Assembly (NCBI RefSeq): GCF_003790525.1
Contig: NZ_CP033635.1
Strand: one strand, 5' to 3'
DNA from: Escherichia coli
GTDB lineage: Bacteria > Pseudomonadota > Gammaproteobacteria > Enterobacterales > Enterobacteriaceae
Length of the DNA stretch: 64,000 nucleotides
In this document: piece by piece, positions 45,001-51,000 of the stretch
How positions within the stretch are numbered: the stretch's first letter is position 1
Layout of the letters: every line of letters starts with the position of its first letter
Position numbers: made by a program

Positions 45001-48000
45001 AAATAAACGCTTTGAACGACAATGAAACTCTTTTGACTTAAAATTAGTTTGTATTTTTCTTAAAAATCAAACCTGTGTCAACGCTGCCCCAATAGATACC
45101 ACCAATTAAAACCATAGAAAAAACCACTAATACTCTTATTTATTACGGTTATTTAATCTATTGATTAAGGCTGAATTTAATATAATTTATTGCTGTGTTT
45201 TTACAAACATTTAGCATGATTGAACAAGTCATCCCGTTTTTTTCATGAAATGATTGATAGAAAGCTGAACAGTACAGAATGATGTATCAGGGGACTCGTC
45301 ATTTTTCCCAGCCTCAGAGTCTGTCTGAACGCTTTTACCACATTTTCTGTCTGCAGGGCTGCCGCCATTCTGGTTGTGTTATCAGACGCAGTAGCCGTTC
45401 TATCCGTCTGGAGGTGCCGGTAGCTGCCTATGTGGCAAGATTGCGTTGCATTTCGCTAGCGCGTCATCAGCGCCATGTTTCCTTAATATCCATCGCTGAC
45501 CCTCCCGGGTTCACCTGTGTACGATCCGGAGACATGGTAGACAGGTGTTCGGGGACATGGTGAACACTTTTTAACATTCTTTGCCATGGTGATCGACTTA
45601 TTTTTCAGGTCGATCACCCCCACTTTTGTACTGTACCACCAGACTTCATACTGACCGTCTTCCTGCGTCTCCTTCAGCCCCAGGCGTTCATTTCTGAATG
45701 CCTTGCCCGCACTCAGACTGACACCTCTCAGACTCAGTTTACCCCTGATATCCACCTTCCTGACTACCACACCCTCGTCATACTCCGGCGGCTCTACATT
45801 GCTCCTGAACTGTCGCGCTGACGGCTGATACCGTGAGGCAGGAACAGCCATATCCAGAGCTTCATGCGGGCGTTCAAGATTATAGACTGTACGCCAGTGA
45901 TCGAAGGCGCGCTGCAACTCACCCGCATCTGTAAACCACTTACCCTGCAAAACTTCCGCCTTCAGACTGCGGTGAAAACGTTCCAGCTTGCCCTGCGTCT
46001 GTGGATGGTACGGGCTGGAGTGCCCCACCTTGATACCCTGACGCATCAGCCATAACTCCAGTGCCGTCCAGGTGCATCCTGTCCGGCAGTCCGTAGTGTT
46101 CAAATACGCTGACCAGCTGTTGCTGCACGGTCGTCCGTTGTTCATTGGCGCAGTGAGCCAGACACAGGGAAAAACGGGAATGATCATCCAGCAGCGTTAA
46201 CGGATGGCAGCGTCCACCGCCAAAGGGAAAGTGCCCCTTAAAATCCATCTGCCAGAGCTGGTTCGGCGTGTTCGAAGCGGCCCGTCGCCGGGGCTGCCGC
46301 AACCAGACCGGGCAGAAGGCCATTGCGGGCCATCAGGTTATGCACCGTGCTGAAGGCGGGCAGAACAAACTCAGAACGTAGTGACATGGTATCTCTCGCT
46401 TCCCTGGGCATAAGCGGCTCCATAAACGGGTTCTGATGCCTTAGTTGTAAGTATCAACCATGTCTCCGAACAAGTGTTTACTATGTCTCCGCATCGTACA
46501 CACCTGTCTGAGGGAGGAGACTGCCCGTCGCACTCTTTGTCTTGATTGCCGCAAATTGGCAGAGGTCGGCAACGCGAGTGTGATAAGCGTTAATGTCCCA
46601 GTGTTTTGCATACATGTCAGAACACCTTTGACTGTAAGCGCATACTGATCTTACCCACCAATAGTGGACACAGGACTAAGTGAGTAAACTCTTAACCAGG
46701 GTGACTCATGACAAAACCAGTATCAATCAGCAAGAAGCCCCGTAAACAACATACGCCTGAATTTCGTAACGAAGCCCTGAAACTCGCTGAACGCATCGGT
46801 GTGGCCGCCACAGCCCGTGAACTCAGCCTGTATGAATCTCAGCTTTATGCCTGGCGCAGTAAACAGCAGCAACAAATGAGTTCGTCAGAGCGCGAAAGCG
46901 AACTGGCCGCTGAAAATGTCCGCCTTAAACGACAACTGGCGGAGCAGGCTGAGGAACTGGCCATCCTCCAAAAGGCCGCGACATACTTCGCGAAGCGCCT
47001 GAAATGAAGTATGTCTTCATCGAAAATCATCGGGCAGAGTTCAGCATCAAAGCGATGTGTCGTGTACTTCGGGTTGCCCGCAGCGGCTGGTATGTCTGGC
47101 TCAGGCGTCGTCACCAGATGAGCCTGCGCCAACAGTTTCGGCTCACCTGCGATGCCGCTGTCCATAAGGCATTCTTTGAGGCAAAGCAGCGATACGGTGC
47201 TCCCCGCCTTGCTGACGAACTGCCGGAGTTCAATATTAAAACCATTGCCGCCAGCCTGCGTCGTCAGGGGCTGCGGGCGAAAGCCAGCCGGAAGTTCAGC
47301 CCGGCCAGCTACCGTGCACATGGCCTGCCCGTATTGGAGAATCTGCTGGAGCAGGACTTCAGCGCCAGCGGCCCGAACCAGAAGTGGGTGGGTGACATCA
47401 CGTACTGTGTGCCCGGAGTTCAGGGCGAGCATAGACGCTCAAATGAACCACGAGTCTGTCTGGAATATTGAACCGGTAACTCACGATGAGAAACCCAACA
47501 ATCCCACCGGGTGTGACGGTGGAGAACCTGAGCGGCAGTGACCTGCGGCATGCCCGCAGGGTGATGTAACCCGCTGACAACGGGGATTGAGGCGAGATCA
47601 CTAAGCCGAGATGATCCTCAAGGTTAAGTACTGAAAGGCTTAAGAATATGAACCCGTTAATCCGCCTCTGTGGGTTGAAAACGTCACCACGGCCTACGTG
47701 ATCTGACAGGCCGTGCAGGAGGAACTGGCAGTGATACGTAAGCACTGCCGGTCGAAGGTGTTTTGACATGTATGCGAAACTCCGGGGCAGCAGCGTCTAT
47801 CACGCTCGCGTTGCTGACTTCTGCCAACTTGCGGCAAGCAAGGATAAAGAGTGCGACGGGCAGCCTCCTCAGTATGTCTGAGTCCAGTCAGGCAAACCGG
47901 GGAAGGTCAGCGACGGATGTTAAGGGGGCATGGCTCCGATGACGCGCTGGCTGGCGGAGCTTCCGTAGTAGTCCGCGATGGGGAAAGCCCATTACATGGC

Positions 48001-51000
48001 GAAGGGAAGCAGTTTGAATGTGTCTGCGACGTAAATTAACTGACCTAACGAGGTGAAGACCTTTGATAATCAGCGAAATGCAACGCAAGCTTGCCACATG
48101 GGCAGCCACCGATCCGTCCCTACGGATTCAACGGCTGCTGCGTCTGATAACACAACCAGAATGGCTGGCTGAAGCGGCGCGGATCACGCTTTCATCAAAG
48201 GGGGCGAATACCCCCGGTGTTGATGGCGTGAACAAAACAATGCTACAGGCCAGACTGGCTGTTGAGCTGCAAATCCTCAGGGATGAATTACTCTCAGGCC
48301 ACTACCAGCCCTTGCCCGCCAGGCGGGTTTACATCCCTAAAAGCAATGGCAAACTGCGACCACTGGGTATCCCCGCGTTGCGGGATCGTATTGTTCAGCG
48401 GGCCATGCTGATGGCGATGGAGCCGATATGGGAGAGTGATTTTCATACGCTCTCATATGGCTTCCGGCCTGAGCGCAGTGTCCACCACTCGATCCGCACG
48501 GTGAAATTACAGCTCACCGACTGCGGTGAAACCCGGGGACGCTGGGTGATTGAAGGCGACCTGTCCAGTTACTTCGACACCGTACATCATCGACTGCTGA
48601 TGAAGGCTGTACGCCGCAGGATCAGTGACGCACGTTTCATGACTCTGCTGTGGAAAACCATCAAGGCGGGACATATCGATGTCGGTCTCTTTCGGGCGGC
48701 CAGTGAAGGTGTGCCACAGGGCGGTGTTATATCGCCGCTATTGTCGAACATCATGCTGAATGAGTTCGATCAATACCTGCATGAGCGCTACCTGAGCGGG
48801 AAAGCAAGAAAAGATCGGTGGTACTGGAATAACAGTATCCAACGGGGCCGAAGTACGGCGGTCAGAGAAAACTGGCAGTGGAAACCCGCGGTGGCGTACT
48901 GCCGCTATGCCGATGATTTTGTCCTCATCGTCAAAGGCACCAAAGCACAGGCGGAAGCCATCAGGGAGGAGTGTCGGGGTGTGCTCGAAGGCAGTCTGAA
49001 ACTCAGGCTGAACATGGATAAGACTAAAATCACCCATGTTAATGACGGCTTTATCTTTCTGGGGCACAGGATCATTCGCAAACGCAGTCGTTATGGCGAG
49101 ATGCAAGTGGTCTCAACGATCCCGCTGGAGAAAGCCAGAAACTTCGCCGCATCGCTGACAGCACTGTTATCAGGCAACTACAGTGAAAGCAAAGTCGATA
49201 TGGCTGAACAACTCAACCGAAAACTGAAAGGCTGGGCCATGTTCTATCAGTTCGTTGATTTTAAGGCCAAAGTCTTCAGTTATATCGACCGTGTCGTGTT
49301 CTAGAAGCTGGCTCACTGGCTGGCCCGCAAATACCGTACAAGTATCGCTTCCCTGATGAGGTGGTGGTGTAAATCACCGAAACCGGGTCAGAGCAAAACG
49401 TGGGTTTTATTTGGTAAAACCAATCACGGCAAGCTCAGCGGCGAAATACTGTACCGGTTGGTGGGGCAAGGCAAGAAGCTGTTCCGCTGGCGGCTACCCG
49501 AAGGTAATCCCTATCTGAGGACGGAAACCAGAAAGACGTATACATCGCGCTTTACAGAAGTGGCAATGGCGTTCGCCAGCGTTTAAATGGAGAGCCGGAT
49601 GCGCTGAAAGGTGCATGTCCGGTTCGGGGAGGAGAGGCAGGGAAATAGTCCGACTACGCCCTGCCTCTTACTCTACTGCGTACCGATGAGGGCTGGTTGT
49701 ATCTCACAGTAGTCATCGACCTGTGGTCACGCGCCGTCATTGGCTGGTCGATGTCACCGCGAATGACAGCACAACTGGCCTGTGATGCACGGCAAATGGC
49801 GTTGTGGCGGAGAAGACGCCCGGAAAGCGTCATTGCTCATACGGACCGTGGTGGTCAATACTGTTCAGGGGATTATCAGGCGCTGCTGAAGCGACACAAC
49901 CTGCGTGGCAGTATGAGTGCGAAAGGCTACTGTTATGACAATGCCTGTGTGGAAAGCTTCTTTCATTCGCTGAAGGTGGAATGTATCCACGGGGAACGCT
50001 TTAGCAGCCGGGAAATAATGCGGGCAACGGTGTTTAATTATATCGAGTGTGATTACAATCGCTGGCGTCGTCACAGTGCCTGTGGCGGTCTCAGCCCGGA
50101 ACAATTTGAAAACCATAATCTCGCTTAGGGCCGTGTCCACATTACGTGGGTAGGATCACTCCACCGTCACACCCGAAGGGATTGTTGGGTTTCTCATCGT
50201 TAGCTACCGATTCTATATTCCAGACAGACTCGAGGTTTATTTAAGAATCCATACCTGCTCGGCCTCCAGCACAGAAAACCGACACTCAAGCAGACTCGGC
50301 AGGCTGGTATGCTCCTGGCGGGCATTTTTGTACTGATATTTTCCGGGCTGAGCACTTCTCAGGTTCAGATGCTTCATCAGCCGCCTGGCACGACAACTGC
50401 TCATCGGGATACCATTTTGAATCAGCATATCTGCCAGAGCACGCGCACCTGCGGAACCCCGACTCTGGTTCCAGACCCGGACTGTTTCGCTATACAATTT
50501 GATTCGCGCCGGATCAATCGTATTGAGCCGATTCTGCCAGTGCCGGAACTGCTGCAATGAGCATCCAGAGCAGCGCAAAGACTGACAATCGTGTGTCGCC
50601 GCTCAGTCTGGTAACTATCGTAAACCGTTCAGTGGGAAGGATATCAAGAGCACTGTAGCTTTTTAATATCGTTTTTTGTTCCTCCAGGCGACGAACCTGC
50701 TTTTCCAGTTCATGAATACGTTGCTACTCTGATGTGAGTGGTGATGCAGAAGACGTGGTATCCTGACGTTCCCGCCTGAGCTGACGTACCCATGCCCCCC
50801 AGTGTATAGGAACCGACATTCATAGCTTCACTGGATTCCCGGTATGAGTAACTTTTATTAACGATAAGCCAGGCTATTTGTGCATTGGTGTTGAGGTGAG
50901 AATAGCACCAGTCAGGTGAGCAGATTATAATGTTACGAGACTTAAGCACCTCTGTAGCTCCCATGGTCTGATAGTTTCTCCCGTATACCGCTCATGCAAC

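Follow-up and report, generated by a model that had tools for sequence, protein, structure and literature searches.

A copy of the group II intron E.c.I4 with an interrupted maturase gene, nested in ISEc16 and in the remains of an older, diverged intron of Escherichia coli

Is the group II intron that splits an IS3-family insertion sequence (IS) in this Escherichia coli contig still a working retroelement, and how did it come to lie between pieces of a second intron on the opposite strand? Both questions are raised by a 64,000-nucleotide (nt) stretch of NZ_CP033635.1 (assembly GCF_003790525.1), referred to in full as the window, for which an original prediction made from the sequence alone had proposed successive rounds of intron and IS invasion. 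We find that the locus is very probably best explained as a recently disabled copy of the group II intron E.c.I4 in ISEc16, lying inside the wreck of an older and diverged intron. The nested history that had been proposed is largely right, but three things were missed: the intron has a name and sits in a documented target, the locus had already been catalogued, and the old copy is too diverged to be taken simply for an earlier copy of it.

The resident intron and its ISEc16 host

The features of the host element and its intron are as follows, with lengths in base pairs (bp) or amino acids (aa).

46646-50158, plus strand: insertion sequence of the ISEc16 family (IS3 family), 1,243 bp once the intron is removed, terminal inverted repeats TGATC...GATCA
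46708-47007, plus strand: ISEc16 orfA, intact, 99 aa, from the list of open reading frames (ORFs), matching positions 1-87 of the NF033516 IS3 transposase model
47004-47406, plus strand: ISEc16 orfB exon 1, ending in ...KWVGDITY plus the first base of the following codon
47407-49676, plus strand: group II intron E.c.I4 (bacterial class A), full-length RNA, 2,270 bp, sense relative to orfB
48078-49586, plus strand: ltrA pseudogene for the reverse transcriptase (RT)/maturase, a 502-aa gene with its ATG at 48078 and an in-frame TAG at 49302-49304
49590-49676, plus strand: intron domains V and VI, matched by Rfam RF00029 over the whole model (positions 1-77 of 77) at 64 bits, gathering score 40
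49677-50128, plus strand: ISEc16 orfB exon 2, running to the stop codon

The original prediction had split the IS3 orfB after ...GDITY at 47406 and resumed it at 49677, and both a joined translation and an empty site bear this out. Excision of 47407-49676 gave an unbroken OrfB of 285 aa reading ...GDITY/LRTDEGW across the joined exons, and the spliced element was 99.0% identical to an intron-less ISEc16 copy in another E. coli genome, named 'IS3-like element ISEc16 family transposase', with a programmed frameshift, by the Prokaryotic Genome Annotation Pipeline (PGAP). In that copy the empty-site junction reads GACATCACGTACT followed directly by TGCGTACC, exactly as predicted from the window; comparison of the filled and empty ISEc16 sites therefore places the boundaries of the insert to the base. 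The host has the TG...CA terminal inverted repeats, the orfA/orfB arrangement and the NF033516 match of an IS3-family element of the ISEc16 type. We observed no target-site duplication of 3-4 bp around ISEc16, whose flanks are ...GCATAC on the left and CTCCAC... on the right; none was obvious around the intron-less copy either, so that copy gives no positive control for a normal duplication. At the orfA/orfB overlap there is also a sub-threshold match to the ALIL pseudoknot (RF01497; 46980-47080, plus strand, 21 bits, expect value (E) 0.027), which fits the programmed -1 frameshift signal of the IS3 family.

The insert begins with GUGUG and ends with CUAC in its RNA, in agreement with the group II boundary rule (5′ GUGYG, 3′ AY). 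The RF00029 match places domain V at 49592-49625 and the bulged A of domain VI 7 nt before the 3′ splice site, so that the length, the GTGTG start and the domain V originally reported all stood. Over its full length, and with identical boundaries, the intron was 98.3-98.7% identical to copies in IS911-like, ISEc31, ISEc52 and pAA plasmid contexts. Its positions 1-1764 were 98.3% identical to the E. coli K-12 ykfC fragment, published as E.c.I4-tr1, a 'fragment of 1764 bp' (Leclercq and Cordaux 2012, PMC3522654). To share a name in the bacterial group II intron database, introns need >95% nucleotide identity (rule quoted in PMC3552965), and the resident intron lies above this threshold for E.c.I4. 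Exon junctions in the ISEc16, IS911-like, ISEc31/IS629-like and pAA plasmid contexts all fall at D(I/V/F)TY codons, and the documented targets of E.c.I4 are IS629, IS911, ISEc16 and ISEc31. Judged by its sequence, the insert is a copy of E.c.I4, a bacterial class A intron; class A proteins have no endonuclease domain (PMC3552965). Retrohoming takes E.c.I4, in sense orientation, to the D(I/V/F)TY codons that are conserved in transposase genes of the IS3 family.

The collections searched comprised 5,426 complete E. coli genomes, 72,556 plasmids and species-representative genomes. The insert is very common in them, with matches in 2,668 of the complete E. coli genomes and in 2,206 plasmids. The 5′ 671 nt of the intron folded with z = -2.9, which is not specific, and a complementarity scan gave candidate exon-binding sites (EBS) at intron positions 263-268 (EBS1) and 156-161 (EBS2), near chance expectation given the search space. 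Among near-full-length class A-like copies, the most diverged that we found is a relative of E.c.I4 in Erwinia endophytica (NZ_RQVV01000003.1, 1251-3298), with 90.4% identity over 2,049 nt; it would be useful for covariation analysis of the class A ribozyme.

The intron, its preference for IS targets and the locus itself are already published. In E. coli SMS-3-5, E.c.I4-25 was recorded at 3241200-3243470 (plus strand) with a disrupted ORF (Leclercq and Cordaux 2012, PMC3522654), and E.c.I4-tr2 as a 132-bp fragment at 3240307-3240438 (minus strand) with 84% identity (Tables S2/S3 of the same study, PMC3522654). The 762-bp spacing of these two entries and their opposite strands correspond exactly to the layout of the window (46645 versus 47407), and over 10 kilobases (kb) the SMS-3-5 and window sequences agree at 99.75% identity. 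E.c.I4, also called IntA and near-identical to S.f.I1, occurs in Escherichia and Shigella in copies of 2,270-2,271 nt that share 98.3-98.7% identity. The window copy resembles them in its gene for a 502-aa protein without an endonuclease domain and in its sense insertion at D(I/V/F)TY of a documented host, ISEc16, but differs from them in 30 private substitutions and in a stop codon, W409*.

The interrupted RT/maturase gene

An intact RT/maturase of 413 aa, and hence a probably functional retroelement that could still splice and retrohome, had originally been read from the insert. The 413-aa ORF runs from a TTG at 48063 to 49304 and is the front part of the 502-aa gene, which has 94 more in-frame codons up to 49586. 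In other copies the full-length protein has 502 aa (WP_001189111.1, ...DRVVFWKLAHW...) and is the product of all four full-length copies among the five compared. The window has TAG in place of TGG, a change (W409*) that shortens the product to 408 aa with loss of the last 94 residues, and in SCU-115, SMS-3-5 and XDL the ltrA gene of this locus is, according to PGAP, a pseudogene with an internal stop. In the intact protein, Pfam RVT_1 covers residues 86-332 and the maturase-specific GIIM domain residues 356-421, and the intact homologue scores 341 bits against TIGR04416 (cut-off 300); W409* takes away the end of the GIIM domain and the entire 81-residue C-terminal extension.

An autonomous intron is expected to carry an uninterrupted RT/maturase frame, and here the frame is broken by the TAG. 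The claim of a functional retroelement is consequently unsupported, W409* cutting into the maturase domain, and the resident copy is most likely no longer autonomous, as far as can be judged from its predicted protein. Its splicing or movement would need intact E.c.I4 protein supplied in trans, for example from a plasmid copy. For endonuclease-less introns of class D, a role of the corresponding C-terminal region in maturase function and mobility is cited in PMC3552965. The best-studied endonuclease-less IS-homing bacterial intron is RmInt1, which occupies ISRm2011-2 in Sinorhizobium meliloti. It likewise uses an IS as its homing site, and its protein consists of RT and X domains followed by a class-specific C-terminal tail needed for maturase function and mobility; it differs from E.c.I4 in belonging to class D (IIB3) and in targeting an IS630-family element.

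Comparison with other carriers of the nest dates the change. In strain 135 (NZ_CP080260.1) the same nest is present, ltrA is intact at this locus, and the whole 3,513-bp unit of IS and intron differs from the window at one base, 49303 (G, not A); the inactivation is therefore very recent, and a single G-to-A change would have switched off the gene. Strain B771 also has an intact ltrA here, with 20 differences from the window. At 15 of the 20 the common E.c.I4 base replaces a window-private substitution, in two blocks (intron positions 235-487 and 1083-1935), a pattern that looks like gene conversion from other copies. The 61-mer around W409* was found exactly in 45 records, all of them chromosomes. 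A 'functional retroelement' call that looked plausible from raw sequence fell to one in-frame stop codon, and strain 135 and the window form a natural one-base allele pair in a 3.5-kb IS and intron unit, suited to probing the class A C-terminal region in splicing and homing.

The older intron on the opposite strand

When the intron was compared with the whole window by blastn, four minus-strand matches appeared besides the intron itself. Together with the elements that adjoin or interrupt them, read from right to left, they belong to the following features.

50249-50960, minus strand: degraded ISEc31/IS911-like IS3-family element, host of the old intron, with orfA and the N-terminal half of orfB
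50159-50252, minus strand: old intron fragment A, about E.c.I4 positions 25-118, about 89% identity, 5′ splice site gone
46507-46645, minus strand: old intron fragment B, about E.c.I4 positions 332-470, 82% identity, the published E.c.I4-tr2
45518-46500, minus strand: IS481-family remnant, 983 bp, with a frameshifted transposase gene
45364-45517, minus strand: old intron fragment C, E.c.I4 positions 483-545 and 666-759
45219-45357, minus strand: catalytic core fragment of a third, different IS3-family transposase, adjoining the truncated old intron

The original prediction held that both flanks of the IS3 element match domain I of the intron on the minus strand. A local aligner confirmed the homology of both flanks to the intron with significant similarity, matching 50159-50245 to intron positions 118-32 (89.7%, E 1e-27) and 46514-46645 to positions 464-332 (82%, E 5e-31). 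Further matches lie beyond the IS481-family remnant, at 45455-45517 (positions 545-483, 81%, E 7e-11) and at 45364-45457 (positions 759-666, 87%, E 1e-27); the old intron lacks positions 546-665, an internal deletion of about 121 nt. Fragment C holds the start of the old RT gene, MQRNLAT*AAT...ITQPEW, which contains a stop codon, breaks off after about codon 29 and is annotated by PGAP as 'reverse transcriptase, internal stop, incomplete'. The four fragments are collinear, in one orientation and without overlap, an arrangement that would be expected of a single old copy read from right to left.

An IS911-like orfB had been named as the host of the older intron, in agreement with the degraded element at its right-hand end. 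In translation this element has frameshifts and stop codons; it matches NF033516, is a PGAP pseudogene, and is 78% identical to an intact ISEc31-family copy at 18798-19421. The old exon ends in ...EAEQVW, six codons before the canonical GDITY site, and the old intron begins at about position 25-29. Relative to ISEc31 and E.c.I4, about 47 nt across the 5′ splice site have been deleted at a (T/C)ATGG microhomology, comprising the last 19 nt of the exon and the intron from position 1 to about 24-28. At the opposite end, the third IS3-family fragment (45219-45357) shares 92.8% identity with an IS3-family gene of strain 571; its identity to window 26303-26454 is 79%.

A second copy of the degraded IS lies at 13130-14040 (plus strand), in which only a 28-nt stub of the old intron (about 13864-13891) is joined to the C-terminus of the IS orfB. 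Its 13288-13891 segment (604 bp) is 100% identical to 50225-50828, inverted, and has the same deletion junction as the old copy; its first ~150 nt are IS911-like, so that it looks chimeric. This stub form, with the larger deletion and the 28-nt stub joined to the IS C-terminus, also occurs on the ColV plasmid pColV-PU1.

That the fragments derive from an earlier copy of the same intron was only partly sustained: an older, related intron on the opposite strand is present, but at 81-90% identity to E.c.I4 it is too diverged to be simply the same intron and falls below the >95% naming rule. Full-length matches to the old fragments in the plasmids reached about 82%; single old pieces were about 85-88% identical to E.c.I4 copies in the complete E. 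coli genomes; and five loci in species-representative genomes (Erwinia, Hafnia, Buttiauxella, Rahnella) that share a conserved domain I 21-mer gave 78-91%. No relative closer to the old copy than about 82-90% was found in the collections searched, the 21-mer scan needing an exact match and so perhaps missing diverged relatives. At these identities the old copy is E.c.I4-like and not E.c.I4 in the strict sense, and would reflect either decay in place or a lineage without a known living member. A stronger version of the latter, in which the fragments are the sole surviving trace of a distinct and now extinct class A lineage and not a decayed E.c.I4 copy, is one that we entertain tentatively, as possible rather than probable. 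If it were true, the extinct lineage would have occupied the same IS3-family homing niche before E.c.I4 came, the locus would preserve a record of the cycle of extinction and recolonisation that has been proposed for the group II introns of Enterobacterales, and class A, described as having only three near-identical members, would widen.

Order of events, competing explanations and surroundings

Between old-intron positions 118 and 332, where ISEc16 now lies, 213 nt have been lost without a target duplication, in good agreement with the loss of about 220 bp without duplication first reported. The loss could have come about by an IS-associated deletion or by recombination between two IS copies. 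The IS481-family remnant, by comparison, has inverted repeats of about 50 nt and is flanked by a 6-bp target duplication, CACCTG, at 45512-45517 and 46501-46506; this clean duplication therefore indicates a simple IS481-family insertion into the old intron. The NF033577 IS481 model matches both ORF pieces, each under the whole-protein cut-off because the gene is broken.

A variant typified by E. coli XDL (NZ_CP043033.1) bears on the 213-nt loss. In it, ISEc16 continues at its left end directly into internal ibrB sequence, and a deletion of 3.03 kb (the equivalent of window 43615-46643) has taken out ibrA, the IS481-family remnant and the left old-intron fragments; the variant was seen in many carrier strains and has three variant bases in the first 110 nt of ISEc16. 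Its junction suggests either that two ISEc16 copies recombined or that an IS-associated deletion removed the adjacent DNA, and the same mechanism would plausibly also account for the 213 nt.

The nesting, from which we infer the order of events, shows that ISEc16 and the IS481-family element both came after the old intron, with W409* as the last change of all. The boundaries, identities, stop codon and nesting themselves are direct observations; the order, the way in which the deletions arose and the loss of function are inferred from them. Splitting of the old intron by both an IS3-family and an IS481-family element, as originally proposed, holds for the two insertions as separate events; as to the proposed order of IS3 before IS481, the nesting would fit either order. 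On the explanation that we favour, an old E.c.I4-like intron first entered the now-degraded ISEc31/IS911-like element on the opposite strand, and ISEc16 now lies inside its wreck. Decay of the old intron would have involved the ~47-nt 5′ deletion, the 213-nt loss, the IS481-family insertion, the ~121-nt internal deletion and truncation of the RT gene at about codon 29. The full nest is present in 32 of the 5,426 complete E. coli genomes, and the composite of ISEc16 and intron, at an identity of at least 99%, in about 55. Strain 135 has one more E.c.I4, its ltrA intact (WP_134233529.1), within an ISEc31-family element; this copy, at 1-1708 of NZ_CP080260.1, adjoins the IS481-family remnant at window-equivalent 45849, which amounts to another round of IS and intron insertion at the locus.

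Several observations weigh against this explanation. When the old-intron fragments were concatenated and searched against the 5,426 E. coli genomes, no place covered at least 80% of the query, so that no uninterrupted old intron was seen there, and none of those genomes showed an intermediate (old intron present, ISEc16 absent) from which the order could be fixed. Insertion of the old intron at the canonical site can be placed to within about six codons, its own junction being deleted. The proposed covariance-model test recovered domains V and VI, but the Rfam models for group II domains I-IV (D1-D4) gave no match in 45000-51000 at E up to 1, and only domain V/VI models matched; the class was therefore assigned from identity to E.c.I4 and from the literature. 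Intactness of the ribozyme would thus be judged from 98-99% identity to other E.c.I4 copies. Compared with five other copies in four exon contexts, the lineage of the window has 30 private substitutions, 14 of them within the 671 nt that precede the ORF; another changes the 2-nt bulge of domain V to UG from the CG of the other copies. Finally, the 408-aa product remains above the TIGR04416 cut-off of 300 with 326 bits (model positions 4-340 of 353), retains the RT domain and most of the X domain, and may have residual maturase activity.

This last point also speaks for a fully functional intron, with an intact RT/maturase, autonomous splicing from the ISEc16 mRNA and retrohoming, as first proposed; such a view can further draw on the full-length RNA with correct ends and domains V and VI, and on the intact sister allele at the same locus in strains 135 and B771. 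We regard it as quite improbable, however, given that the TAG at codon 409 removes the end of GIIM together with the 81-aa tail whose class D equivalent contributes to maturase function and mobility, and that in most of the chromosomes with W409* the 61-mer is the sole match in the record (plasmid records being listed separately). An intact ISEc31-family copy in the window, 28 kb from the intron, also has an empty IS3-type site near 19440, although this is weak evidence, the site being a candidate homing target.

How the intron reached its present place can also be told differently. ISEc16 may have carried E.c.I4 already on its arrival in the old intron, having been mobilised in trans by a different ISEc16 copy: the nest leaves the order of intron entry and ISEc16 arrival unfixed, intron-less ISEc16 copies in E. 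coli could provide transposase, and in the XDL-type variant the three variant bases within the left 110 nt suggest that this ISEc16 exchanged sequence with a second copy. Yet all examined composites of at least 99% identity sit at this one locus with the same right flank, giving no sign that the composite has moved, and an IS with a split orfB makes no transposase of its own unless the intron is spliced out; we consider this course of events rather unlikely. It is very improbable that the minus-strand fragments are pieces of two or more separate intron copies joined by rearrangements. The left end of the series does adjoin a different IS3-family element instead of the expected C-terminus of the host IS, and the second host-IS copy at 13288-13891 has only the 28-nt stub. 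The four fragments nevertheless share one strand, follow a strictly descending intron order without overlap and are similarly diverged (81-90%), and the target duplication of the IS481-family insertion implies that the sequence on its two sides was once contiguous. A single old copy, later interrupted, remains the reading that we prefer.

Nested wrecks of introns and ISs are typical of bacterial group II introns, and the K-12 ykfC locus in the CP4-6 prophage is another example. There, the fragment E.c.I4-tr1 sits in an IS911 that IS30 has cut, and IS5 has cut the intron itself. E.c.I4-tr1 shares 98% identity with current E.c.I4, whereas the old fragments of the window are 81-90% identical and lack a close intact relative. 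With its diverged old fragments and nested ISs, the ibrAB-sodC region shows how introns turn over inside insertion sequences on an E. coli genomic island; otherwise the locus is ordinary and matters little beyond bookkeeping.

Rfam matches to isrC, isrN and STnc490 hinted at a Salmonella origin for the window, a reading that we discarded because the region shares 99.7-100% identity with E. coli chromosomes. The nest is bordered on one side by ibrB/ibrA, for an IbrB-like and a PAPS reductase-like protein (43096-44951, minus strand), and on the other by sodC (52159-52683, minus strand), and annotation of the identical locus places remnants of IS66, IS100, IS256, IS200 and IS110 around it, as in a genomic island rich in mobile elements. 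The intact ISEc31-family IS3 element occupies 18706-19919 (plus strand), with orfA at 18706-19053 and orfB at 18873-19919. On the start of its orfA, the Rfam model for isrC, an Hfq-binding small RNA, matched at 18738-18860 (plus strand, 150 bits), and a weaker match below threshold (50807-50889, minus strand, 30.8 bits) lies at the equivalent place in the degraded relative beside the nest; from these positions the isrC family appears to be IS3-family sequence. Rfam matches to isrN and STnc490, both Salmonella-named families, were found at 30242-30384 and 54584-54705, respectively, each on the minus strand, and the STnc490 match adjoins an IS200/IS605 tnpA fragment in the annotation of the identical locus.

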